Counted from the stretch's first letter, positions 1 to 34,268 are shown. The stretch: DNA of 35,064 nucleotides from an uncultured virus (IMG/VR IMGVR_UViG_3300013121_000021) (IMGVR_UViG_3300013121_000021), one strand, 5' to 3'. Program-made: numbers and translations. Notes: generated from the sequence alone by a model not told the origin.

Positions 1-735
1 TCATCTATTTCTAATCTACGCCAGTGTTAAAATTCTCAGCATTATTTCTGATCACCTCTGCCGTTAAAATACCGATTGTTATTTCTGATTCGATTTTTTG
101 TTAAAATGACTGGCCCTATTTCTGATCGGGCCGAATGTTAAAATAACCTGCTTTATTTCTATTTGGGGGAGGTGTTAAAATACGGAACGTTATTTCCGAT
201 CCAACATCATGTTAAAATAACTGACCTTATTTCTAATCATTCATCCTGTTAAAATAACCAAATTTATTTCTGATTGCTAATTGTGTTAAAATAGAGATTT
301 ATATTTCTGATTATTTATATTGTTAAAATATTCCACACTATTTCTGATTGAGCCCGATGTTAAAATTAGCACCTTTATTTCTGATCAATATCAATGTTAA
401 AATAATGAGCTCTATTTCTGATCGGGCCGAATGTTAAAATCGGCTTTTTTATTTCTATTTGCGGCAGTTGTTAAAATTTATCCTCGTATTTCTGATCAAT
501 ATGTTCGTTAAAATACCGATTGTTATTTCTGATTCGATTTTTTGTTAAAATATTTCCGCATATTTCTGATTAATACTTCTGTTAAAATTAGCGACACTAT
601 TTCTGATCGAATCAAATGTTAAAATCCACCGCACTATTTCTGATCTAAGAACTTGTTAAAATCGGCTTCGATATTTCTGATTATTCATCTTGTTAAAATA
701 CCTGTTGCTATTTCTGATTTGAGTTCGTGTTAAAT
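1..735 (-). repeat. Dual-repeat array 1: 37-bp units TGTTAAAAT-N9-TATTTCTGAT-N9 (TIGR-like geometry), truncated by window edge
   Basis: GTTAAA(A)T at 26, 63, 100 ... 729: 20 copies at an exact 37-bp period; two conserved blocks alternate with two variable 9-mers. Strand inferred from the leftward promoter motif at 767-781. Confidence 0.93.
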
Positions 736-766
736 TAGAAAAAAATTTAAAAAATCTTTTCTATAA

Positions 767-781
767 AATATTATATCTATA
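767..781 (-). promoter_or_regulatory. Putative phage promoter TATAGATATAATATT pointing into array 1
   Basis: Same motif recurs upstream of about 10 transcription units in the window. Confidence 0.65.
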
Positions 782-1605
782 TCAAATAGTATAAAAATTA
801 ATCGGTAAAAACCCACCCAAATAATCAATACTTAATATTAATTATTTGGGTAAGTATAAAAATAGGTCGGTAAAAAAACCAATCCTATACTTCAATATTT
901 AATAGATTTTTTATGCTTCCGCGTCTATTAAATATAAATTTTTCGCTTTAATTATCGGCACTTTCCTTTTATTTTTGTATTTAAACCGATACAAATTCGG
1001 GTTTCAACGGATTATCATAGAGTTTTATATAAAAACTATTATACTTATCCTTGCTGTGGTACTCTCGTCTTCAACCGATACCCCACTATCCACAACTCTT
1101 TCATATCTCATACATTCCTATGTACTTCATATAACTAGTGTCATTTTTCAACGCACAACTTTGACGTGCTAGCCTCTACTCAGTAACTTTCCCGGATATT
1201 TTCTTCTCTAGGTAGACGAATCCCCTAGTTAAGTACTTTTAGCTGCTATTTAAGACTTCCGCGCCATAGAATACTTCTATCCGTCCTACTTATTACCTTT
1301 CCGCGCTCTCTCATGTAGCTACGTAGACCCTTCCCCTATATTTTAGTCCTTGCTTTGCGTTACAGTTTATCTTTGCACATCCTCAATGGCTGTGGGATAT
1401 AAACTTTCGCCCAGTTTTAATTCCGCGCGCTACGCTGGAACAACCGTTGAACGGTCACCTCAATAATTTCTATATATAATGTGACCAAACCCAAAAATTA
1501 TACTTAAGTAACCTAAATGCTATTTTTTATACTAATACTAAAAATGTATAAATGATATATTGTACTTTCTGTTACTAACATATTTTTTTAAAACACTAGT
1601 ATAAT

Positions 1606-1688
1606 TTTTGAAAACACGGAAAATAGTAAAAAAATATTAGTAGAAAAATTTAAGTTACTAATTTTGAAAACACGGAAAATAGTAAAAA
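1606..1688 (+). repeat. 27-bp direct repeat TTTTGAAAACACGGAAAATAGTAAAAA x2
   Basis: Copies at 1606-1632 and 1662-1688. Confidence 0.85.
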
Positions 1689-3471
1689 CTATATCAAACT
1701 ATTAAAAAATAGTAATATAGTTTATAATTTTTTCCTAATAGGCTTTAAGTTAAAAGCTAGCTCTCTTGGATAAAAAAGTACTAGTATAAAAAAAATTCGG
1801 AAAAAATGCGTCCTATGACCACATAGGAACTCACTCATAAGTAGCATCTTTATCTCTTAAATACATTCCCAAAAATCCCAAAAACAAAAATTTGTTAATG
1901 TAAATTTAAGGTACTAATTCCTTCAAAAGATAAGTTTTTTATGCACCCGACGTATAAACCATCTTTTAGTCTATGTTTTTTCAGTCAAGGTTTTTTCATT
2001 TTTAACCTTTTAAAGACTAATGATATTTATACGGATAAATGTCAAATCCGGAACTACTATTATATAGATCTCGTACCACGTCTATTCGCACGGTCTCATA
2101 ATGAGAGCTTATTTGTATTGTGTAATATCCTTTAATCCATCTCTAGTTCTTAATAATTATGCCTACTAAAGTCATACGTTCTAGCCGCAATTCGCGGATT
2201 TAACTCTCACTTACACAGGGCTCTCTGGCACGTCATGTACCGAAGGAATACCCCCAGTCAGAAAATGTACCCGCCAAATTTATGCGAGCCTTAGATTCCT
2301 CGTATCTTTTGTTTTTCAGCATCTCTAGTACACAACTTAAAATAAGATTCTTCCATTTCCATTATTCTTTTCACTATATAATATAGAATAGATTGGGCTA
2401 TAAAGTTACCACCTTCCCATGGAATAATAAAGCTTCCCCTTTTGCTAAGGTTGTTCAGTATTACCCGTTTTTTATATCATCGTAGCCACTTTAACATCCA
2501 ATAAACCAATCCAAAATCGGCGACATTGATCTAATTAAAGATACATTGTCTCATACCAAAATATGGAAAATCCAAACTCTGAACGATGGGATCAGCCATC
2601 CTGTATTGGAAAACCTTGTCCATATTTTAGTGTGTCCTTATTGTCATGTATGATATCCTTATATCGGCTCACAAAGATAGAGGCCATTTTCTACCTCAGT
2701 TCTCATATTTCTTTTATACTTTTCTTTTAATTCATCCTTACTTTGTAAATCTTAGACCAAAATAAGTAGCATCCAGATTTCTGAGTAGTTTATAAAAAAT
2801 AAAAAAATAAACCACTAGTTCCATTATATTGTAAAAAATATTTTTGATTAATTTACCATATATATTAACATAAGAAATATGAGAAAATATATAAATTATT
2901 AATTACTTATAAGTATCCACTTTTCACTAATAATTCATATCGATAATAAAATTTTTATAATTCTATTATCGATAGGAAATACTAATTTTATGATGGTTTA
3001 TACGCTGGCCCCATAATTATACCCAGGGCTGTTTTTTCTAGCTCTCTTGGATATAAAAACAGATAAAAAATTAAAGACTTCTGTATAAAAATGTATTTTT
3101 ACCAAATTGAACCCGGACCCGTATAAAATTTAGTAGCTCACAAAAAATTTTTCAGCGCGCGCGGGCGGAAAATCCTATTTTTTTCTTCAATTGAAATCAG
3201 CTAACACTAGCTCTGCAATGTACCAAGGCAAACATGCTGCGCGGCGCGGAACTCTCTCTTTTTCTTCAGGGTGTTAAACAATATCCTAGGATAAAGTTCT
3301 ACCATCTCCCAAAAATGAACTTCCACAGGCGCAACTAATCTTTCTTTTATTTGAAAAGAATAAAGAGAACAATATTTATCTCTTAAATCGAAAGAATGTA
3401 TCTATAGGACCAGAATGTTATCTATTCAAATTATAACGGCGGGTTTATTTCCTCAAAATACAATTAATTTT

Positions 3472-3600
3472 GCGGAAAAATCACAATTTTTTAAAAATTT
3501 CCAAAAATACTAGCGAAAATTTTATTTTTTCAGCGGAAAAAATCTCACTTTTTAATTTCACTTCAAAAATGCGACTAAAATTGCGGAAAAAATCTCTTTT
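3472..3600 (+). repeat. Iteron-like repeats GCGGAAAAA(A)TC
   Basis: Copies at 3472, 3533, 3583; related GCGGAAAATCC near 3166. Confidence 0.65.
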
Positions 3601-3637
3601 TTAAAAAAATCTGCTAGTAACGGTCTTTTTATACGGT

Positions 3638-3771
3638 ATATATAGTATATAATAATAATATATATAATATATATTATATTATATAAAAAAAAAAAAAAAA
3701 AAATAAAAAACTCACATTACAAATTGGAACGAAGTGACAATGCAGTAATGAGGGTTTTTTATTTTTTTTTT
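3638..3771. repeat. Near pure-AT tract followed by long imperfect inverted repeat
   Basis: TATA-type tract ~3638-3686, then (A)n-TAAAAAACTCACATTAC ... GTAATGAGGGTTTTTTTA-(T)n. Confidence 0.7.
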
Positions 3772-4399
3772 GAATAGGATAAATTATAAGTTTAGTATAA
3801 GCTCATAGTAATCCATTAATTTTTATGATAAATTTATTTTTTTTAAATATTTTTTACAATATCTAAAATATACCTCTACCAAAAATTTTGAAAAAATAAT
3901 CGAAGCTTTCTGATAGGATTTTCTGTGTCTCTGCGATACAAAGCTGTACAAACCTGTACTTGGGATCGGGGGGATTTTGGGAAAGTACTGGTTTTACTAG
4001 TTTGTACTATTAAAATTTAATTTTTATTTCCAAGAAAGTCTCTAAGTAACTGGACACGGTATAATTATAGGACCCTAGTATAAAATTAGTTAAAATATTA
4101 GTTAAAACATAAGTAGAAAATAGTAGAATTAGTACTAAGATCTCTTATAAAAAAGCTAGTATAAAATGTAAAAAATCTGGGAAGGGACCCAGGGTCCACC
4201 CTGGAGGTGGGTATCTATTTTTGATTCTACCAAAAATTATACATCCCAAATATACCCTAATGCTAGTACTTTCCCGTTACTTTTTGGGATTACTTTTTTT
4301 GGGGAGGGTCATATATTTTTTGATTCCAAAAATTTTTTATACTGAGTTTATACTCAAAGGGGGTTCTCCCATATGACCCTAGTATTTTCTGAGATTTAG

Positions 4400-4414
4400 T
4401 ATAGATATTATATT
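4400..4414 (+). promoter_or_regulatory. Putative phage promoter TATAGATATTATATT
   Basis: Recurrent motif, ~45 nt upstream of ORF 4448. Confidence 0.6.
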
Positions 4415-4447
4415 GAGCATCGTTTCTAATAACTCAAAGGTAGGTAT

Positions 4448-4708
4448 ATGTCATTTTTACAATTTAATGAATCATTGAATATTGTTGCATATTTATATAA
4501 TACCTCGCAATATGATCTTAGAATATTATATAAAGAAATAATAAACTTAAATGCTTCAAATCTTGAATCATTTAAAGAAAAAATACAACAAAAATTAAAC
4601 GAATTTGATAAAGAATTTGAACATTTACCTCCATCTATATCTGTAGATGAATTCTTTGAAAGAATGAAAGATGACATGTTAAAAATGAAAGAACATTTAT
4701 CTGAATAA
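4448..4708 (+). CDS. Hypothetical protein (86 aa)
   Basis: ORF with AGGT-type RBS, upstream promoter motif and downstream terminator. Confidence 0.75.
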   Translation: MSFLQFNESLNIVAYLYNTSQYDLRILYKEIINLNASNLESFKEKIQQKLNEFDKEFEHLPPSISVDEFFERMKDDMLKMKEHLSE

Positions 4709-4722
4709 AAAATAAATAAATT

Positions 4723-4760
4723 AATCCCTAGTCTTTTTATAGGCTAGGGATTTTTATTTG
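4723..4760. terminator. Intrinsic terminator hairpin between convergent genes
   Basis: AATCCCTAGTC ... GGCTAGGGATT followed by T-run. Confidence 0.75.
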
Positions 4761-4868
4761 TTTTCTATATTATATTTCTAAAAGAAATACCATGTTTTTT
4801 CAAACCTTCAAACATTTCAGATTGTATTTTATCTGGAAGACTATTATTTTTTTCAATATATTGTAATG

Positions 4869-5465
4869 CTAAAAAACGTCTTCAACATCAAACCCCATTT
4901 TAAATTGAGATGGGTATGCAAATTTAATATTTTGTCTAGTTAAAAGATCAATCAGACCGCCTTGTGGAAGAGAAATATTTTCAATATGATGTTTTAATAA
5001 TTGTTCTTCAAGATATTCATTATATTCATCTTCAAATATTTTTGAATAGATATAAACGGCTTCTAAAACTAATCTTGGAATTGTAAATTCATCAATTATA
5101 TTTAAGAATTGTTTAAATTTATTATATTTTTCTAAAGAAAATTCTCGTTCTTCAAAACCTAGTTCTAACGGCAAAAATATATTAGTTAAACTTTCTATTA
5201 ATGGTTTAGTATCTTCCATATGATACCATGGAGTATCAGATTTATTAATATATTCATTTGCAAACCAAGATCTAAATTTAATATTTTCCCAATCAAAACG
5301 ATAATCTTCTAATTTATATTGTATAAGCCATAATGGTAATTTTAAATCTAATAAAACTGAAGAATTAAATAAATCATCTTCATAAGATATTTTTTGAATA
5401 TAATAATTTAATCTTTCAGTAGAAGATTGAAAAAGAATAATTAATTCAAGAATTGTGAAGTACAT
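4869..5465 (-). CDS. Hypothetical protein (198 aa) just downstream of array 2
   Basis: Long ORF; no recognised motif. Confidence 0.7.
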   Translation of the reverse strand: MYFTILELIILFQSSTERLNYYIQKISYEDDLFNSSVLLDLKLPLWLIQYKLEDYRFDWENIKFRSWFANEYINKSDTPWYHMEDTKPLIESLTNIFLPLELGFEEREFSLEKYNKFKQFLNIIDEFTIPRLVLEAVYIYSKIFEDEYNEYLEEQLLKHHIENISLPQGGLIDLLTRQNIKFAYPSQFKMGFDVEDVF

Positions 5466-5477
5466 AGTTATTTTGGT

Positions 5478-5508
5478 AAAAAAAATCTCCTAGATAAAAC
5501 TAGGAGAA
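5478..5508 (-). terminator. Intrinsic terminator at the downstream (minus-strand) end of array 2
   Basis: Minus strand TCTCCTAG-TTTTAT-CTAGGAGA followed by a T-run. Confidence 0.75.
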
Positions 5509-5527
5509 TTATTTAAATAATCTCTAG

Positions 5528-6299
5528 AGTGTCTGTTTATCATGCATGTTAAAATTAAACTTTTTAGATCTATTAATCTTAACTGTTAAAATTCGAAACT
5601 CTATATCTATTAATTCATGGTGTTAAAATCCCGTGTTTAGGATCTATTTTCGGGGCGCCTGTTAAAATACGTCCCATTATTTCTGTTTCTACTACATGTT
5701 AAAATCACGGATGTTGTATCTATTTTGCTGCAATGTTAAAATTCGCTTTTTTGTATCTATTCAAAGTGATTGTTAAAATACGCCCTAACATGGCTATTTC
5801 TACTACATGTTAAAATCTATTCCAATGTATCTGTTTCGGAATACTGTTAAAATCAACTTATTTGTATCTATTGGAGCTAAATGTTAAAATAGCGCAAAAT
5901 GTATCTATTTCACGAGCATGTTAAAATTAGCTACTATGAATCTATTAGTGCGGAATGTTAAAATCGGAATCTCTATATTTATTTCCAGAGATTGTTAAAA
6001 ATTATTGATCCCGTATCTATTTATATGCATTGTTAAAATCGATAACTATATATCTGATTCTACGACATGTTAAAATATTGTGGATTGTAAAGATTTACTG
6101 GTTTTGTTAAAATTCACACGAATGTAACTATTTACCCTACATGTTAAAATCAGCAACTATGAATCTATTACGATCATCTGTTAAAATATTTCGTAGTGTA
6201 TCTATTTGTGTCAGGTGTTAAAATTCCTTTTTTTGGATCTATTTCAGCTCTACGTTAAAATTTGATCTTCTGTATCTATTTTGAGAAAGGTGTTAATGA
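5528..6299 (-). repeat. Dual-repeat array 2: ~37-bp units TGTTAAAAT-N9-TGTATCTATT-N9
   Basis: 21 TGTTAA motifs from 5547 to 6291, period 37 (one 39, two 38); second block is a variant of that in array 1. Confidence 0.92.
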
Positions 6300-6538
6300 A
6301 GTCTAAATGGTGTTTGGCCTTCTCTTATTTCTTTCGTAGTGAAAGATCTGAAGAAAAGAAATTCATCTCCATTTTGATCATAAAAACTTGCAACCCATCC
6401 TTGCGATACTTTCGTCCATGGAATCAATTCCTCTATTAATTCATTTTGACGAATATAATATTTATATTCGTCTTCAGTCATCTTTACTCCATTAAAGATG
6501 TACTCTGGTTTGTCTGAGATTTCTAAATTTTCAAACAT
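6293..6538 (-). CDS. Hypothetical protein (MFENLE...), stop codon overlaps first repeat of array 2
   Basis: GGAG RBS at 6547-6550 favours the ATG at 6538 over 6589. Confidence 0.7.
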   Translation of the reverse strand: MFENLEISDKPEYIFNGVKMTEDEYKYYIRQNELIEELIPWTKVSQGWVASFYDQNGDEFLFFRSFTTKEIREGQTPFRLH

Positions 6539-6609
6539 GACTATAACTCCTTTATTTTTAATAATAAAGAAAAATGCCTTTTTGTTCAAGAAGGCTAACT
6601 TGATATTTA

Positions 6610-7068
6610 TTATTCGTACAAAGCATCACATTGACGAAAACAGCGACTTACAGTCATTGAATTTCCAATACCACCATAAGTTGCGTTACACCAATTGTAG
6701 CATCGATCCTGAGTAGCATTAGGAGCTTTTTCTCCTGTGATTGCTCTCATTTTCTGTACTTCTGGCATTGATTCCGCATTTTGTTGGATATTATTTAGAT
6801 CAGAGAGAAAACGCATAGCGTTTTCATTTTGTTCCCTAGCTTCTGCGGCTTTCTGTTCTGCAGTCTTCGTTGGGACAGGAGTCGAAGTCGATTTAGTAGA
6901 TACCTGTTTTGAATTAACTCCAAAACTAGACATCATGTTCTGTACCCCTCCCTGAGCTAGTAACTGCCTGGCAACTCCCTGCCAAGCCATATTCTGTGCC
7001 ATGTTTCGTGATGAGCATCCACCCACCAATAACATAGCTACTGATATAATAACGATATAGGTTTTCAT
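6610..7068 (-). CDS. Putative lipoprotein (152 aa) between arrays 2 and 3
   Basis: Signal peptide with lipobox-like LVGGC; AGGAG RBS; C-terminal four-Cys cluster; upstream promoter motif. Confidence 0.75.
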   Translation of the reverse strand: MKTYIVIISVAMLLVGGCSSRNMAQNMAWQGVARQLLAQGGVQNMMSSFGVNSKQVSTKSTSTPVPTKTAEQKAAEAREQNENAMRFLSDLNNIQQNAESMPEVQKMRAITGEKAPNATQDRCYNWCNATYGGIGNSMTVSRCFRQCDALYE

Positions 7069-7107
7069 GATAATCTCCTAAAAGAATGTTACCACCTCCT
7101 CCTATAT

Positions 7108-7122
7108 AATATTATATCTATA
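7108..7122 (-). promoter_or_regulatory. Putative phage promoter TATAGATATAATATT
   Basis: Identical to 767-781; upstream of lipoprotein, ORF 6538 and array 2. Confidence 0.65.
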
Positions 7123-7127
7123 CCAGA

Positions 7128-7331
7128 TTATAAATAATCTTCTGGTTGAAATTCATCAACTGTTACAGATTTTAGTAGTGTAATTTTCTCTGGCTTCTCT
7201 GACTTTGGTAAAATTTCAAGTATACAATTATTTGAAGAAAGTCTTAGTTCAATATTATAATGTTCTGACTCTGCTTTAATTATTTCTACTGTTTTTTGAT
7301 TAACCAGTGGAGTAGTAATTTGGCGTTTCAT
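7128..7331 (-). CDS. Hypothetical protein (67 aa)
   Basis: ORF directly downstream of array 3. Confidence 0.6.
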   Translation of the reverse strand: MKRQITTPLVNQKTVEIIKAESEHYNIELRLSSNNCILEILPKSEKPEKITLLKSVTVDEFQPEDYL

Positions 7332-7354
7332 AAGAGTATTTTAAAAAGTAAATT

Positions 7355-7809
7355 TAAATAAAATAGTCTTCGTTGGATCTATTTTTGAAGATTGTTAAAA
7401 TCGCAGTGTGGGTGGCTATTCGCTATTTATGTTAAAATAATGCTTAGTGTAACTATTTTATCCGTCTGTTAAAATCGCCCATTTTATTTCTGATTTTGTC
7501 GAATGTTAAAATTCCCAACGTTGTTTCTGATCATTCGCACTGTTAAAATTGACCATTTTGAATCAATTAAAGATTGCTGTTAAAATTAATGCAGAATGTT
7601 TCTATTGGACCTGCATGTTAAAATTTCCAGCCGTATTTCTGATTCGGGTGTGTGTTAAAATTTCTACCAATATGTCTGATTGGTCTGCATGTTAAAATCA
7701 ATCAGTGTGTGTTTATTTTGCCTAACTGTTAAAATCATACCGGATGTTTCTATTGGATTTGCAGGTTAAAATAGTTGCGAATGAGTCTGTTATCTCAACT
7801 TGTTAAAAA
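7355..7809 (-). repeat. Dual-repeat array 3: ~37-bp units with more degenerate second block
   Basis: 12 GTTAAAA motifs from 7394 to 7802, period 37 (one 38), plus a degenerate terminal unit. Confidence 0.9.
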
Positions 7810-7887
7810 AATAGACCCCAAGTATACACCCGGGGTCTATCATGAAGAAAGTATCCAAAGTGTGGGGGGATATGGATACTCCTTCAA
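7805..7887 (-). ncRNA. Candidate ~80-nt small RNA: hairpin with C-rich loop plus terminator hairpin
   Basis: Promoter motif at 7890-7902; AGTATCCA/TGGATACT stem around TATCCCCCCACACTT; ATAGACCCC/GGGGTCTAT followed by T-run. Confidence 0.5.
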
Positions 7888-8105
7888 TATATAATATCTA
7901 TATTAAAAAAAATAAAAATAATCAATAAAAACGTATTAAAAATCATACGTTTTTATTTTAAGTCATAAGCTTCTTCCACCTATCCCGGTGATTACCAGGA
8001 CAGATATTATCATCGAAATGATAAAAAGACCAATAAAGTACAAAACTAACATTTTAATCTCCAACTACTTATAATATTATATAATATATATATTAAAATT
8101 GGAGA

Positions 8106-9386: not shown

Positions 9387-9468
9387 CTCTATATTATATC
9401 TATATATAAAAAATAAAAACATAAATGGGTACATCCTAAAGATATACCCATTTCTGGTGATAATGAGA

Positions 9469-10104
9469 CTATACGTCGATTGTTGTTCGAGCGTTAATCT
9501 CGGATAAAGCGAAATCTACTTCCTCCATAAAGGAAGAGATCTTCTTATCGATCTCATCGATCTGTTTCTGAATCCCAATAGGATCCAGGAGAGCTGCGCC
9601 ATGTTTGGCGATTCGAGGCGCTGCGATTGCAGCATACTGGTCTTCACTGACCTTCCCCTTCTCGTTACCATAGGCAACTTGAACTGCACGCTCGATTTCT
9701 GCATCGAGTTGAGTATTGGAGTTGGTGATTACCATCTCCGCGCGCATCTTTGCTTGACGAAGATTGGTTAATAGCACTCGATCCATCTCCAAGCTGTTCT
9801 TATATTCGATCGCTTCCGCGATCGTCATTTCGATGTTGTGGATTTTGACCTTGACTGTAGAATTCGCCAGGGTCAATAACCGGCGTAGTTTCAACCGTTC
9901 CTCAATCTTGTCGAGTACTGAGCGAAATTGCGATTGAATCCGTTCTTCCATATCCTTTACGGAAGAAGACGAATTCACTATGATCCGGCTTTCACCATGA
10001 CCTTTCGTCACAGCTACCGGTTCCAACAATTCTATCTCTTTACCGATCGACTTTTTCAGAGTCGAAATCCGGGAAAGGACGCGGGTCAGAGTCATCTCTG
10101 CCAT
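9469..10104 (-). CDS. DIP1984/DUF6847-like coiled-coil protein (211 aa)
   Basis: Motifs AN-x-TV...MTIAEAI and LLDP...EVDFALSEINARTTI; GAGGGG RBS; markedly higher GC than flanks; terminator 9423-9453. Confidence 0.7.
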   Translation of the reverse strand: MAEMTLTRVLSRISTLKKSIGKEIELLEPVAVTKGHGESRIIVNSSSSVKDMEERIQSQFRSVLDKIEERLKLRRLLTLANSTVKVKIHNIEMTIAEAIEYKNSLEMDRVLLTNLRQAKMRAEMVITNSNTQLDAEIERAVQVAYGNEKGKVSEDQYAAIAAPRIAKHGAALLDPIGIQKQIDEIDKKISSFMEEVDFALSEINARTTIDV

Positions 10105-17543: not shown

Positions 17544-17556
17544 TATAGATATTACA
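17544..17556 (+). promoter_or_regulatory. Putative phage promoter TATAGATATTACA
   Basis: Recurrent motif upstream of ORF 17591. Confidence 0.6.
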
Positions 17557-17590
17557 TAATATTAATTAAAAAATTCTGAGGAGAATTAAA

Positions 17591-24821: not shown

Positions 24822-25999
24822 ATGGAGTCAATTGATTTTGAAAAACTTCCAATTGTTTCGTCTCCAAAATTATTTTCTGATAAAAACTTTAAAATTCCAC
24901 ATCCAGAAGGAATATTAAGTGAACAAATATTTGGCCCGTTACAAAATTGGCGGTGTCAATGTGGAAAATATAGTACTAAGATATTATATGATAATTTAAG
25001 ATGTGATGCGTGTGGTGTATTATGTACTCATAACAGTATAAGATACACCACATTTGCTAAAATTATCTTATATTTTAAAGTTATAAAAAAACAAAAACTG
25101 CCTATCTTTCAAAAATGGTTAAAATCTAAAAAATTAATATTAGATCCATTACAACGAGATTTATATAGTAGTATCGGAATATATTTAAAATATGTTAACG
25201 ATGATACTATTGAAATATGTGATTATTATGATCCAAATAATGTAAATATAATACCTCTATCAATAACTGGAATTTTTACATTATATATTGGTTTATATTG
25301 TATAGCTAAAATATTCGATTGTAATAGAGCAAAAGAATTACTTAGTTATTTTACTGATGAAGTATTGGTAACACCTCCTTCTACAAGACCATCTATTATA
25401 ACAGATACTCTTGGAGTTAAAAAAGGTGTCACTTCAATTATTCATTCAGATTTAGATCAAGCATATGCAAAATTATTATCTACTAATCAATATAATCTTA
25501 AATATAAAGAATTAGCAGATGTTTCAAATTATTATAAAATGATTTTATCCAGTATTAATTTAAATACTGGGGTTGCTATTTGTGATGAAGAATTAAAATT
25601 ATTTGATGAAGTTAATAGCTTCTATCAATATTCATATAATCAAATATATGATATAGCTAGTAATATTTTAACTGGTAAAACTGGAATAATCAGATCTAGC
25701 TTTTTAGGTAAATCAGTAGATTTTAGTTCAAGATCTGTTATTATTAATGACCCATCATTACTAACTTATCAAATAAGAATTCCAAAAGCTACATTTATTA
25801 AATTATACTTTATTGAATATTTAAGATTTCTTCAAACTATAAAACAATCAGATTATAAAATATTAAGACAATTAATAAAAAATTCTGAAAATAATATCCA
25901 TAATTCGCAACTCGATCATTTAGATGATTTTATTGAGTATTTCTTTACTCAAACAGCTAGAAAAGATCGGTTACTTATAATGAATAGAGTACCGTCGCT
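24822..25999 (+). CDS. rpoC: RNA polymerase beta' subunit, exon 1 of 4 (spliced CDS 3072 nt, 1023 aa)
   Basis: GILSEQIFGP, CQCGK...CDACGV Zn finger, GKTGIIR...LGKSVDFSSRSVI, NRVPSL. Confidence 0.92.
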
Positions 26000-27160
26000 T
26001 AACTAATAAGGTGACGTTAAATTTCATTAATTGCTGGAAACCCCTTAGAGCTTTAATCGCTACAACGTAAGATAAAAATCTAAACGTGAATGCTTGAAAA
26101 GATTAAAGATTGGGCAATCAGCAGCCAAGCGGGTGTAAAATCCTGAAGGTTCAACGACTAGTGCTTAGCACGTAGGGTTTATTGGAATGTAAACCCGAAA
26201 AATGAAATAGTTAGTTCTAATTAATATATTCTTTTAACATACTTGTTTTGTATTTTTTATAATATGCCATTATATAAAATCGATGACATTATTAATAATT
26301 GGAAAATTATATCTATTTTAGGTCGAAATAAATATAATGCCCAATTATATGAGTGTGAATGTATATGTGAAAACAAAACGATTCGTCAAATTACAGAATA
26401 CACATTAAAAAAAGGTCGTAGTAAAAGTTGTGGTTGCTTACAAATAAATAAAAATAGTACTCGTTTACTAAATCAAATATTTGAAAATTTATTAGTTATA
26501 AGTCTTAATGGTAAAGACAATAATAATAGATTAGTATGGGATTGTGTTTGTATTTGTGGTAATACATGTAAAGCTACTACTGCTGATTTAATATCAGGGC
26601 ATGTTAAATCTTGTGGTCATTTAAAATATGAACCAAAAACATTAACTCATGGAATGAGTAAATCTCCAGAATACTATTGTTTTTATAAAATGAAGCAAAG
26701 ATGTTCTGATCCTAATCATCATCAATTTATAAATTATGGAGCCCGCGGTATATCCGTTTGCGAAAGATGGTTAGATGAAGAAAATGGATTTATAAATTTT
26801 ATACAGGATATGGGATTACGACCAAAACCCAATTATTCTATCGAACGATTAGATAATAATAAAGGTTATGAACCATCTAATTGTAAATGGGCAACTTCAA
26901 AAGAACAAAATAGAAATAATAGAAATGTAATTATTTCCTCAATGGATGAAGCGAATGAAATTCGTAGATTGTATTCCACTGGAAATTATACATATTCTGA
27001 TCTAGCTGACATTTTTGAATGTAGTCCTGATAATATTGGCATGATTGTAAGAAAACAATCATGGACATAATTACTTATTAGTGTATTTGAAAGAACTAAC
27101 TAAAGATATAGTCTATTCTTATGGGAAACCATAAGCGGTTTATGGATGAACAATATAAAG
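26000..27160 (+). mobile_element. Group I intron 1 in rpoC, carrying an HNH endonuclease
   Basis: P1 CGTCGCT/GGTGACG with U-G at the splice site; AATTGCTGGAAA, AATCAGCAG, GTTCAACGACTA, AAGATATAGTC core; terminal G; splicing restores NRVPSLWKH. Confidence 0.92.
26264..27070 (+). CDS. Intron-encoded HNH homing endonuclease
   Basis: Two CxC...KSCG modules, MKQRC...YGARGISVCERW, SIERLDNNKGYEPSNCKWAT; C-terminal HTH-like segment; ATG at 26264. Confidence 0.88.
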   Translation: MPLYKIDDIINNWKIISILGRNKYNAQLYECECICENKTIRQITEYTLKKGRSKSCGCLQINKNSTRLLNQIFENLLVISLNGKDNNNRLVWDCVCICGNTCKATTADLISGHVKSCGHLKYEPKTLTHGMSKSPEYYCFYKMKQRCSDPNHHQFINYGARGISVCERWLDEENGFINFIQDMGLRPKPNYSIERLDNNKGYEPSNCKWATSKEQNRNNRNVIISSMDEANEIRRLYSTGNYTYSDLADIFECSPDNIGMIVRKQSWT

Positions 27161-27266
27161 TTGGAAGCATTCTCTCCCCATTGTTGAAGTAGTTTCACCG
27201 TTACATGAAGAATTGGTTATTAGCATTTCTAGTCTAATAATTGAATCTATGAATGCGGATTTCGAT
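27161..27266 (+). CDS. rpoC: RNA polymerase beta' exon 2 (106 nt)
   Basis: Reads WKHSLPIVEVV...ESMNADFD in frame. Confidence 0.9.
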
Positions 27267-27578
27267 GTATAAAATTGTCGAATAAAAATTCTATTAATTG
27301 CTGGAAACTCCTTAGAGCCTATTTAACTACAAAGTAATCTGAAAAGATAAGCTTGAATGTTTGAAAATAAATAGGATTGGGCAATCAGCAGCCAAGCGGG
27401 TATAAAATCCTGAAGGTTCAACGACTAGTCGTAAGACGTAGCTAGAAGTGCCAGCTAGCGAAATGTAGAATTTTCAAAATTTAACATTTTGAAAAAAGAT
27501 ATAGTCTGATCTTATAGGAAACTATAAGCTGGGGTAATTTCCCGGGTAATGATTGGCATTCATTACTGAACATAATTG
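27267..27578 (+). mobile_element. Group I intron 2 in rpoC (312 nt, no ORF), inside NADFD/GD
   Basis: P1 TTCGAT/GTCGAA; same core motifs as intron 1; terminal G before GGT GAC. Confidence 0.92.
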
Positions 27579-28413
27579 GGTGACACAGTAAGTCTCTTCA
27601 GAGTACATTCTGAAGAAGGGAAAAGAGAACTTGAAAAGAATGCTTTCGTAGTACATACTCTACAATTTGATCATAATAATAATTATCAACATACTATTCT
27701 TGATGAAGCTGTATATGCTTTTCATACATTAGCATCTTGCAAAATAAATAATAATCTTTCTGGATTAAAAATTAATTCATTAGATGATTTACCATTTGAT
27801 TATAATATATTCCATAATTATTTAAATGCTCCAATTACTATTCATAATCATACATATTCATATGGATTATGTTTATTAAATAAAATAATTGGACTTAAAG
27901 AAATTCATGTAAATAATAAAACCAATCTGCAAAAATTATCTCAAATAATTCACAATTTATCTTCTGATAATTTTGATTATCATTATAGATTATGTGAATT
28001 AAATAGAAAATTAAATTGGTTAGTTTCAACTCATCCAGATAAAACGCTAACATTACCAATCAATGAGTCTTTGGAAATATTAGAAGCTAATCAAAATGAT
28101 AAAGTTTTAAATAATTTGCCTGAAAATCCATATATTGGAATGCATATTTATAATGCTAAATTAGATAATGTTTTTGAAAATATTAATGTAGAATCTAACT
28201 TATCTAGTTTATTGAAAGCTAAGAATAAAAAAGCCCAATTTTCCCGTTCTATATTGAGTATTGGGTATATTGCTGATGATAAAAATGTTGTAAATAGTAG
28301 ACCTATTAATTCTAATTTAATGGGTGGACTAAATGAAGATGATTTTTTCTTATCTTGTCAAGGTTCAAGAAAGGGTATAACGGATAAACACAAATTGACC
28401 CCTGCAAGTGGTT
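27579..28413 (+). CDS. rpoC: RNA polymerase beta' exon 3
   Basis: GDTV...GLNEDDFF...GSRKGITD...TPASG (bridge helix region). Confidence 0.9.
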
Positions 28414-28653
28414 AGTACTAATTGATCACTATAAATTTTATTAATTCGGTGAAACTCCTAACGCTAAGGACAATACCGAGCCAAACTAGATTAAATCTAG
28501 AAGGTGTAACGACTATTCCTTCGGGAAGTACACTCAAGCGAGTGGAAATGTAAAATAGTTTCTTTTAACTAAAGAGATAGTCTAATCTTATAGGCAACTA
28601 TAAGCTGGGTAAAATCCCGGGTAAAGAGTAGCGATCTTTACTGAATATAAATG
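28414..28653 (+). mobile_element. Group I intron 3 in rpoC (240 nt, no ORF)
   Basis: P1 AGTGGTT/GATCACT; AATTCGGTGAAA, AATACCGAG, GTAACGACTA, GAGATAGTC; splicing restores SGYLERSL. Confidence 0.92.
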
Positions 28654-29606
28654 ATCTTGAACGCTCACTAGCAATGGCTTTATCTGTTGTAGAACTGGAT
28701 GAAGAAGATTGTGGTACAAGATATGGATTTACTATAACTGTTTTAAGTGAAAAACATGGTAAATCATTAATTGGTAAATATTATAAACAAAATCCAGAAG
28801 AAGATTGGAAATTATTTACTTCTTCCGATATTCATAAATATATTAATACTTCATTAATATTTAGATCTCCAATTACATGTTTTAATAGTCATTATAAAAT
28901 ATGTAAAAAATGTTTTGGTTACTATCCGCGAATTCAAACGCCTTTTGTGGGAATTATTAGCGGCCAAGTAGTGTCAGAAAAAACTACCCAACTTACATTA
29001 AGATCATTCCACACTAGTGGTTCAAGCACCCTTACAATTAATAATAAATTAAAGAATTATATTAGAGAGCATTTAATTGATATAATATTAGATAAAAATT
29101 TCTGTACTCTAATATTTAATGAAAATATAGATGAAGAATATTCAGAAATAATTTCTTCAGTTCCAGGGTGTATCCAACTTTATGCAAATACATGTCAATT
29201 TGACTATATTTATAATATAGAAAATGAAGATGTTGGAAAAGTTATAAAAGATTTAAAGAATTGTTTATTAACAGAAAAAGGTGATGTTACATGTACATTA
29301 CAAACTTATAATAAATTGATAGAATCAATTTTATCTGTTGGTAATATATTTTCATCTTTTATTGAAATAATTCTTTGTAATTTATATACTAATAATAAAA
29401 ACAAAATAATTCGATATCAACTTAGAGATAATGATATTCTTGAAATCACTAAAAAATATAGTGTATATCATATTCATAGTTTGTTATCTCCAACATTAAA
29501 TTTACTATACAAACCAAATCTAAATACGATTTCCGAATATTATAATACAGTTGTGAAAAATTGTCATAAACCATCTATATTCGAAAAAATCTGGTTAGAT
29601 ATCTAA
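28654..29606 (+). CDS. rpoC: RNA polymerase beta' exon 4
   Basis: EDCGT, RSPITC...ICKKCFG, VGIISGQVVSEKTTQLTLRSFHTSG (trigger loop). Confidence 0.9.
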
Positions 29607-32332: not shown

Positions 32333-32454
32333 TAACAAATAAAATGGAGTGAGATAGAATATATCTCACTCCATTGGATTTATTTTTTAAATTATATTAT
32401 ATTTATAAATTCAATATAGATATAATATGATTTTAAACTAAACTAAAATCTACA

Positions 32455-32896: not shown

Positions 32897-33148
32897 ATGT
32901 TGATTAATGAAATTGGAACTAAAGTAACATATAAATGTACAGAATGTGGGCATATATATTCTATTCATTTAACTAAAAAATGTCCTAAATGTAAAAATAT
33001 ATATGTTGATGCCTATATTGATATAGGTGTTAAAATTAATAGATTAATTGATCAAATTCAATTAAATTTGGAAATAAACAAAAATGCCGATAAAACAAGT
33101 TTTATACAGATCGGATCAGAAAGTTCCTGTAAAAATTTGGACCGATGA
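32897..33148 (+). CDS. Zn-ribbon protein
   Basis: CTECGH...CPKC. Confidence 0.65.
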   Translation: MLINEIGTKVTYKCTECGHIYSIHLTKKCPKCKNIYVDAYIDIGVKINRLIDQIQLNLEINKNADKTSFIQIGSESSCKNLDR

Positions 33149-34268
33149 TATAGATTATAAATCATTAGAACAACTTGCAAATATAGCTGAATTACCATTT
33201 ATATTTAAACATATAGCAGTAATGCCAGATGTTCATTTAGGAATTGGAGCTACTGTAGGTTCAGTTATTGCAACACAAAAAGCTATTATTCCAGCAGCTG
33301 TAGGAGTTGATCTTGGTTGTGGAATGAATGCTATTAGATTATCTATAACGGCAAATGATTTACCTGATAATTTATCTGAGATTAGAAATCAGATAGAAAA
33401 AGCTATTCCATTAGGAGCTGGAGCTCATAGACAAGAAAATCATCTATCAAATACAAAACTTAATTTAGGATATGAAAAAGTATTTGATAAAATAGGTTTT
33501 GGATTTAAAGAATTTAAAAAAGCTGCATTACAATTAGGTACATTAGGATCTGGAAATCATTTTATTGAGATTTGTCTAGATCAAGATAATTATGTATGGG
33601 TAATGTTACATTCTGGTAGTCGTGGAATTGGAAATATGATTGGATGTCATTATATTTCCATTGCTAAAAAAGAAATGGAAAAAATGTTTATTAATCTACC
33701 AGATAAAGATTTAGCATATCTAGTTGAGGGCGATTCTAATTTTAATAATTATGTTGAAGCTGTTAAATGGGCTCAAGATTATGCATTAGAAAATCGCCAT
33801 TTAATGATGAAAACTATTTTAGAAATATTAAAAAATATATTTCCGCCGTTTAAAATAATAGATGAAGGAGCAAATTGTCATCATAATTACATTGATATAG
33901 AAAATCATTTTAATAACAATGTTTATATTACCAGGAAAGGAGCTATAAGAGCTAGAGAAGGAGATATCGGAATTATACCTGGTAGTATGGGTGATAAAAG
34001 CTATATTGTTAGAGGAAAAGGTAATAAAGAATCATTTTGTAGTTGTTCCCATGGGGCAGGTAGACGATTATCTAGAAATTCAGCAAAAGAACAATTTACA
34101 ATTGAAGATTTAATAGAACAAACTCAAGGGATTGAGTGTAAAAAGGATGAAAGTGTATTAGATGAAATTCCTAAAGCTTATAAACCTATCGATGAAGTAA
34201 TGGAAAACCAATCGGATTTAGTAGAAGTTCTATTTACATTAAAACAAATTTTGAATATAAAAGGTTAA
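33084..34268 (+). CDS. rtcB: RNA-splicing ligase RtcB
   Basis: MPDVH, VGVDLGCG, GTLGSGNHF, HSGSRG, HHNY, PGSMG, SHGAGR, DEIPKAYK motifs. Confidence 0.96.
   Translation: MPIKQVLYRSDQKVPVKIWTDDIDYKSLEQLANIAELPFIFKHIAVMPDVHLGIGATVGSVIATQKAIIPAAVGVDLGCGMNAIRLSITANDLPDNLSEIRNQIEKAIPLGAGAHRQENHLSNTKLNLGYEKVFDKIGFGFKEFKKAALQLGTLGSGNHFIEICLDQDNYVWVMLHSGSRGIGNMIGCHYISIAKKEMEKMFINLPDKDLAYLVEGDSNFNNYVEAVKWAQDYALENRHLMMKTILEILKNIFPPFKIIDEGANCHHNYIDIENHFNNNVYITRKGAIRAREGDIGIIPGSMGDKSYIVRGKGNKESFCSCSHGAGRRLSRNSAKEQFTIEDLIEQTQGIECKKDESVLDEIPKAYKPIDEVMENQSDLVEVLFTLKQILNIKG

Follow-up and report, generated by a model that had tools for sequence, protein, structure and literature searches.

TIGR arrays consist of two alternating 8–12-nt repeats with 9-nt spacers (PMC12045711). 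The published frame of such an array runs box C (3 nt), spacer (9 nt), box D (2 nt) and gap (4 nt) (preprint 10.64898/2026.09.09.750476); canonically, the sequences are CCA for box C and UG for box D, the G of the latter pairing with the first C of the former (PMC12045711; 10.64898/2026.09.09.750476). Published arrays may sit upstream or downstream of tas, or flank it on both sides. We analyzed a 35,064-nt stretch of DNA (the window) from an uncultured virus (IMG/VR IMGVR_UViG_3300013121_000021) that carries three arrays with this architecture, each built from an edge repeat and a loop repeat. The arrays belong to the dual-repeat TIGR kind published in 2025–2026 and are not the new guide-RNA array family for which an initial annotation of the sequence had made them candidates. 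We consider it likely that an uncultured large phage carries them as its TIGR arrays, that the minus strand is the one transcribed, and that the Tas gene is located elsewhere on the same contig.

On the plus strand, each unit comprises a 9-nt block (TGTTAAAAT), a 9-nt variable segment, a 10-nt block and a second 9-nt variable segment. The 10-nt block reads TATTTCTGAT in array 1, and its consensus in the other two arrays is TGTATCTATT. Read in the RNA sense (minus strand), array 1 alternates edge AUUUUAACA, a 9-nt spacer, loop AUCAGAAAUA and another 9-nt spacer, and the loop consensus of array 2 is AAUAGAUACA; the repeats and the minus-strand orientation had been given correctly before. The resulting layout of 9 + 9 + 10 + 9 nt has the alternating 8–12-nt repeats and the 9-nt spacers that define a dual-repeat TIGR array. 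Array 1 (1–736, minus strand) contains at least 20 units of 37 nt; its first edge (728–736) is degenerate, and the array is cut by the window start, where positions 1–24 are the tail of one further unit. Array 2 (5528–6299, minus strand) contains ~21 units, and its truncated first edge overlaps the stop codon of an open reading frame (ORF) at 6293–6589. Array 3 (7355–7809, minus strand) contains ~12 units with the most variable loops of the three arrays, and ends in a truncated edge directly before ORF 7128–7331.

Edge anchors with no more than one mismatch number 52 (20 at 25..728, 20 at 5547..6253 and 12 at 7393..7801), spaced by 37 nt in 46 of 49 cases, by 38 nt in two and by 39 nt in one. 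The composite pattern TGTTAAAAT-N9-TNTNTCTNNT, again with at most one mismatch, gave 42 matches against 0.09 expected (100 shuffles), every one of them on the plus strand and within the three arrays. Half-units carry array 2 down to ~5528 and array 3 down to ~7355, so the extents and the count of about 53 units in three 37-nt arrays first reported for this sequence hold. Among 50 parsed units 49 are distinct, those at 62 and 506 being identical. The window contains a few duplicated or near-duplicated units together with 111-nt higher-order repeats, which suggests that the arrays grew by duplication of units followed by divergence. No ORF of at least 60 amino acids (aa) is present inside the arrays and, combined with the 37-nt period, this excludes a protein repeat, as the initial annotation had already argued.

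We scanned viral contigs (13 loci) and metagenome contigs (at least 107 loci) for three copies of GTTAAAAT at 36–38-nt spacing and sorted the loci by information content. The majority were plain tandem repeats. Among the matches listed, variable-spacer arrays were found in four distinct contigs (L009, the same as L015; L011, the same as L020; L013; and L052), with edge TGTTAAAATC, loop TGGTTCACTC and a period of 36; within that set, the window edge AUUUUAACA is identical to theirs at 9/9 positions. All four (4/4) carry a Tas gene (hidden Markov model [HMM] E ≤ 1e-140) 0–2.9 kb upstream of the array, encoding ~305 aa and co-oriented with the AUUUUAACA sense of the array. The Tas of L009 matches the solved TasH (21kl_A, E = 7.8e-17, Nop domain; also 9mty_A, E = 6.5e-12) and belongs to a family with 2,403 hits in one search and 6,081 representatives at 50% identity in another; the published Tas catalogue (Faure et al., 2025, PMC12045711, supplement file 3) lists the proteins of L009, L011 and L013. 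The 9/9 identity indicates that the invariant block of the window serves as edge repeat in a known clade of Tas-linked TIGR arrays. It leaves the claim of a new family unsupported and, with the anatomy, supports the suggestion made alongside that claim, that these are TIGR-like guide arrays.

A more distant Tas is encoded on L056 (metagenome contig, 976–1290 and 3580–4575; HMM E = 3.9e-26 / 8.4e-34), 2.3 kb away from an array of ~10 units that recur every 37 nt, with UUUUAACA inside the edge and a loop that is UUCGAGA-like. Loop sequence and unit length therefore vary among Tas-linked arrays that share an edge core. Spacer content varies as well: the Tas proteins of L009 and L013 are 93% identical, yet their arrays have no unit in common among 28 and 13 parsed, and L011 and L013 have 4/13 units in common. 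So few common units despite near-identical Tas proteins point to fast spacer turnover. The window's own repeat strings had no match in the supplements of PMC12045711, and the exact repeat pattern had none in viral, metagenome or genome contigs.

We infer the frame of the window repeats from the TIGRFinder description. In that frame the loop of the Tas-linked relatives divides as AG-UGAA-CCA and their edge as AU-UUUA-ACA; on our reading of these sequences, the G:C pair of the loop appears to be exchanged for U:A in the edge. The window edge likewise divides as AU-UUUA-ACA. The window loops end in ACA in arrays 2 and 3 and in AUA in array 1, with the terminal A of box C near-invariant, and in array 1 the inferred loop frame leaves a 5-nt gap, which would account for the 37-nt unit. 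The initial annotation had raised the missing CCA...UG boxes as an objection to a TIGR assignment. The absence is real, but the objection appears to be resolved: the Tas-linked relatives carry ACA/AU in the edge and CCA/G in the loop only, so that the absence in the window is probably a variant of the clade.

The edge and the loop differ in how well they are conserved. Mismatches to the edge consensus amount to 2/171, 1/162 and 1/90 in arrays 1, 2 and 3 (4/423 in total; ~99% conserved), and mismatches to the loop consensus to 6/190, 23/180 and 25/100 (3%, 13% and 25%); spacer positions are ~55–60% off consensus. Three arrays with one invariant edge and differing, partly degenerate loops suggest that in this clade sequence constraint falls on the edge rather than on the loop. 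The spacers are GC-rich, at 0.44 against 0.27 for the window; in the Tas-linked relatives the values are 0.45–0.48 against 0.34–0.36 for the genome (~11–14 GC points richer). Spacers 10–17 GC points above their carrier genomes, in the window and the Tas-linked relatives together, and with fast turnover, bear on the origin and the targets of TIGR spacers.

Taken by itself, the array 2 transcript folds unremarkably (z = -0.96), as we would expect of dual-repeat guides because such guides take shape on the protein. Complementarity between spacers A and B of the same unit is not enriched overall (2.30 vs 2.23; permutation p = 0.36). In the units at 5808 and 7764, spacer B is the reverse complement of spacer A at 7/9 positions, where non-cognate pairs predict ~0.12 units of this kind; a guide with A–B complementarity would, by the TIGR pairing rule, address a direct repeat of a 9-mer.

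The signals flanking the arrays point to transcription from the minus strand. The motif TATAGATATNATAT is over-represented in the window (13 copies; 1.16 expected); the copies are intergenic, share the strand of the gene downstream and, by comparison with the ORF list, at least six are placed ~27–60 nt upstream of a same-strand start codon. Sites include 768–781, 4400–4413, 7109–7122, 7889–7902, 9391–9404, 17544–17557 and 32415–32428, and the motif is probably the promoter consensus of this phage. The copy at 768–781 (minus strand; TATAGATATAATAT) precedes the first edge of array 1 by 31 nt, and a terminator-like hairpin with a T run further upstream (812–854, minus strand) would close the preceding transcript. 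Array 2 appears to form the end of an operon (6293–7122, minus strand) that runs from the promoter motif at 7109–7122 through ORF 6610–7068 and ORF 6293–6589 into the array; past its degenerate last edge, by ~20 nt, lies a predicted Rho-independent terminator (5507–5486, minus strand; 8-bp stem, T8). The order of degenerate last edge and terminator, and the strand signals, are as published for TIGR arrays (PMC12045711).

The leader of array 3 (7810–7902, minus strand) contains the promoter motif at 7889–7902 followed by two strong hairpins (7796–7890, minus strand: minimum free energy -36.8 kcal/mol, z = -5.55), and the U7 tail of the second hairpin (7841–7810) merges into the first edge repeat. 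These hairpins could represent a short leader RNA, or an attenuator by which array 3 is controlled. No terminator was found between the truncated last edge of array 3 and ORF 7128–7331.

By analogy with characterized TIGR-Tas systems, the arrays would operate as follows. Arrays 1 and 3 would each be transcribed from a phage promoter of their own, array 2 would form the last part of a small operon transcript, and the transcripts would be cut inside the edge repeat into ~37-nt tigRNAs, each consisting of half an edge, 9-nt spacer A, the loop, 9-nt spacer B and half an edge. A Nop-domain Tas, acting as a dimer, would bind edge and loop at their box C/D-like ends (ACA or AUA with AU), and the two spacers would pair with neighbouring segments of the target DNA, one on each strand; the target would thereby be blocked or cut. 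The Tas gene would most likely be found on the same contig outside the window, possibly just past array 1.

Several observations weigh against this reading. No Tas gene is recognizable in the window, as the initial annotation had also reported: Pfam gave no Nop or IS110-type match (PF01798, PF02371) at E < 0.01 among the 55 ORFs, and two Tas HMMs, one from 120 close sequences and the other from 143 diverse ones, run with all filters off, gave best E values of 1.4 and 1.1 against 654 six-frame segments. As positive controls for the same HMMs, the relatives reached E ≤ 1e-111, and L056 reached 1e-26 to 1e-34. In the five Tas-linked relatives Tas lies within ~3 kb of an array, and in the window there is none in 35 kb: the 4.8 kb between arrays 1 and 2 hold a 3.7-kb ORF-free stretch instead of Tas, and none occurs in the 27 kb that follow array 3 on its right. 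The repeats themselves add further points. The window unit of 37 nt is 1 nt above the typical 36, the loops contain neither CCA nor UG, and the array 2 loop fits the 9-nt frame only after a one-base shift. A terminator-like hairpin stands between the promoter and array 3, and we found no close relative with the same loop repeat, so the evolution of the arrays could not be followed.

The last of these points concerns targets. With the arrays masked, and allowing two geometries, gaps of 0–2, both strands and at most three mismatches, paired-spacer targets in the window showed no excess (17 hits vs 8–32 in 20 re-paired controls). By our arithmetic, ~17 chance matches are expected for one 18-mer in 596 Gb, so target searches outside the window would be swamped; the chance-match problem of 18-mers is also stated in the preprint (10.64898/2026.09.09.750476).

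The missing Tas could mean that the phage has none, and that its orphan arrays supply guides that are loaded onto the Tas of the host, of a prophage or of a co-infecting phage, redirecting or saturating that effector. We regard this as unlikely but not remote. It would explain a window free of Tas although the relatives keep theirs close by, it accords with arrays that possess their own promoter motifs, and the conserved edges make the arrays look functional; the word 'orphan' is absent from the TIGR literature searched. A weaker variant of the same guide-only reading is that a Tas is present but too divergent for profile HMMs. There is no sign of any trans-acting Tas, however, and the window covers only 22% of a contig of 159,064 bp. 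Array 1 runs off the window edge and Tas could adjoin it there, in keeping with published arrays on either or both sides of tas. The size of the contig and the cut array make it probable that the effector lies outside the window. If the guide-only reading were true, ~50 promoter-driven, edge-conserved guides would constitute the first 'guide-only' TIGR element, to which phage-borne CRISPR mini-arrays are an analogue; a whole genome without Tas would make the finding considerably more interesting.

That Tas was lost and the arrays are relics, decaying and out of use, is a good deal less credible. The degenerate loops of arrays 2 and 3 and the window without Tas would fit such a history. Neutral decay, however, would strike edge and loop equally and would not spare the edge, which is intact at the ~99% level in all three arrays while the loops vary; moreover, the promoter motifs and the terminator are intact, and array 1 is almost perfectly regular.

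We also think it very improbable that the arrays form a separate guide-RNA family served by a non-Nop effector encoded beside them, for example ORF 4869–5465 or ORF 6293–6589. The flanking ORFs are indeed orphans of unknown function, ORF 6293–6589 ends where array 2 begins (the position that Tas occupies in L009 and L052), and the loops are without canonical boxes. The edge, however, is that of the Tas-linked arrays in four contigs, and the neighbouring ORFs do not resemble Tas, nor are ORF 6610–7068 and ORF 6293–6589 Nop-like. ORF 6293–6589 (82–98 aa, the shorter form being 6293–6538) gave, for 6293–6538, a small alpha/beta domain with a predicted local distance difference test score (pLDDT) of 82.8 in one of five models and no PDB fold match at E ≤ 0.001. 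The AlphaFold2 (AF2) model of ORF 4869–5465 was unusable (pLDDT 35.7), and this ORF had no PDB sequence match, no protein atlas match and no homologue among 5.8 billion proteins. ORF 6610–7068 is a lipoprotein of 152 aa whose signal-peptide-like N terminus, read from the sequence, ends in VGGC.

We give almost no credence to a non-guide tandem repeat (iterons, a promoter cluster or the protein repeat excluded above). The edge does contain TTAACA, which is similar to a -35 hexamer, and there are several promoter-like hits within the arrays, but such hits are not enriched (56 vs 52.2 ± 8.0 in shuffles). Iterons, moreover, do not look like arrays in which two conserved blocks alternate strictly with two hypervariable, GC-rich 9-nt segments.

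The window is AT-rich (27% GC) and phage-like, with no match to deposited phages by megablast or blastn. Eleven public DNA runs contain the stretch or part of it, only one with at least half of the sampled words; all 11 are labelled sludge or digester metagenomes and most shares are small, and no RNA run with the stretch is listed. No tRNAs were found, and ORF 4869–5465 and ORF 9469–10101 led to no close relatives in viral contigs. The lipoprotein and small-protein operon with array 2 as its 3' end is unusual company for a guide array.

Under table 11, the 3.7 kb between array 1 and 4440 (736–4440) contain no ORF longer than 65 aa, and recoding (TAG = Q, table 4, TAA = Q) was rejected since nothing above ~150 aa emerged. 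GC is locally raised in the segment, its plus strand shows a strong C>G skew, and it has repeats of its own (TTTTGAAAACACGGAAAATAGTAAAAA twice, exact; CTAGCTCTCTTGGATA twice; TAGTATAAAAA..TCGG(T)AAAAA three times). It has no match in deposited phages and no Rfam family was detected in it, in 700–4500 or in the arrays. The segment, which occupies the place of Tas in the relatives, may be a cluster of unknown non-coding RNAs.

An RNA polymerase beta' is encoded in two pieces (24822–26003 and 28674–29603), ~2.7 kb apart and only ~25% identical to that of any deposited phage. The gap holds a group I intron (27219–27528; 70.5 bits), ORF 26243–27070 with a weak HTH_7 match and ORF 27576–28415, and the whole region (24822–29603) looks like an invasion of the polymerase gene by an intron and homing endonuclease. 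The window also carries an ORF of a tail-fibre family and a full-length RtcB RNA ligase gene (33084–34265; Pfam E = 8e-128). Homologues of RtcB at 52–56% identity occur in several smaller viral contigs (27 loci); in the five records behind RtcB loci L122–L126, the edge pattern was found in 0/5.

Notable in the locus are non-canonical boxes with a 37-nt unit, and three arrays with ~50 guides that share one edge and differ in their loops, with no Tas in view. A finder seeded on CCA/UG near tas might miss this box variant (AU...ACA or AUA, U:A pair, 37-nt unit). The TIGRSafari catalogue, if released, could already include arrays of this type.

The window can be set against four described systems. 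CRISPR arrays have a single repeat of 23–55 nt and spacers of similar size. The window shares with them the logic of repeat and spacer, a leader promoter and a terminator. It differs in having two repeat types, each of 9–10 nt, with two 9-nt spacers, and Pfam detected no Cas domains among its 55 ORFs; we therefore rejected its identification as a CRISPR array. SpTIGR-TasH of Salicola phage CGphi29 (PDB 21kl, 9w03, 9w04; PMC13421893) is likewise phage-borne and dual-repeat and, together with TaTIGR-TasR (PMC12045711), has guides of the 36-nt class in which both repeats bear box C/D-like ends. The Nop domain of TasH can be aligned with the L009-type Tas. Both systems differ in carrying UG/CCA on both repeats and in an HNH or RuvC nuclease domain; Pfam detected no nuclease domain in the L009-type Tas. 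The L056 array resembles the window in its 37-nt period, its edge core and a loop unrelated to the CCA type, and differs in the loop sequence, the smaller number of units and the Tas nearby.

The clade node4347, with its nuclease-less Tas (Faure et al., 2025, PMC12045711), includes L009, L011, L013 and L052. Its unit is 36 nt (10+8+10+8 as written) with loop GAGUGAACCA and a canonical CCA, whereas the window unit is 37 nt with CCA-less loops. In the stretches examined, the node4347 relatives have one or two arrays of 13–34 units with Tas within ~3 kb, compared with three arrays, ~50 units and no Tas in the 35 kb of the window. The edge is nevertheless the same, AUUUUAACA lying within the GAUUUUAACA of the clade. 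Both have two alternating repeats and two short hypervariable spacers that are GC-rich relative to the genome, both reside on large AT-rich viral contigs, and in both an array may begin at the stop codon of the upstream gene.

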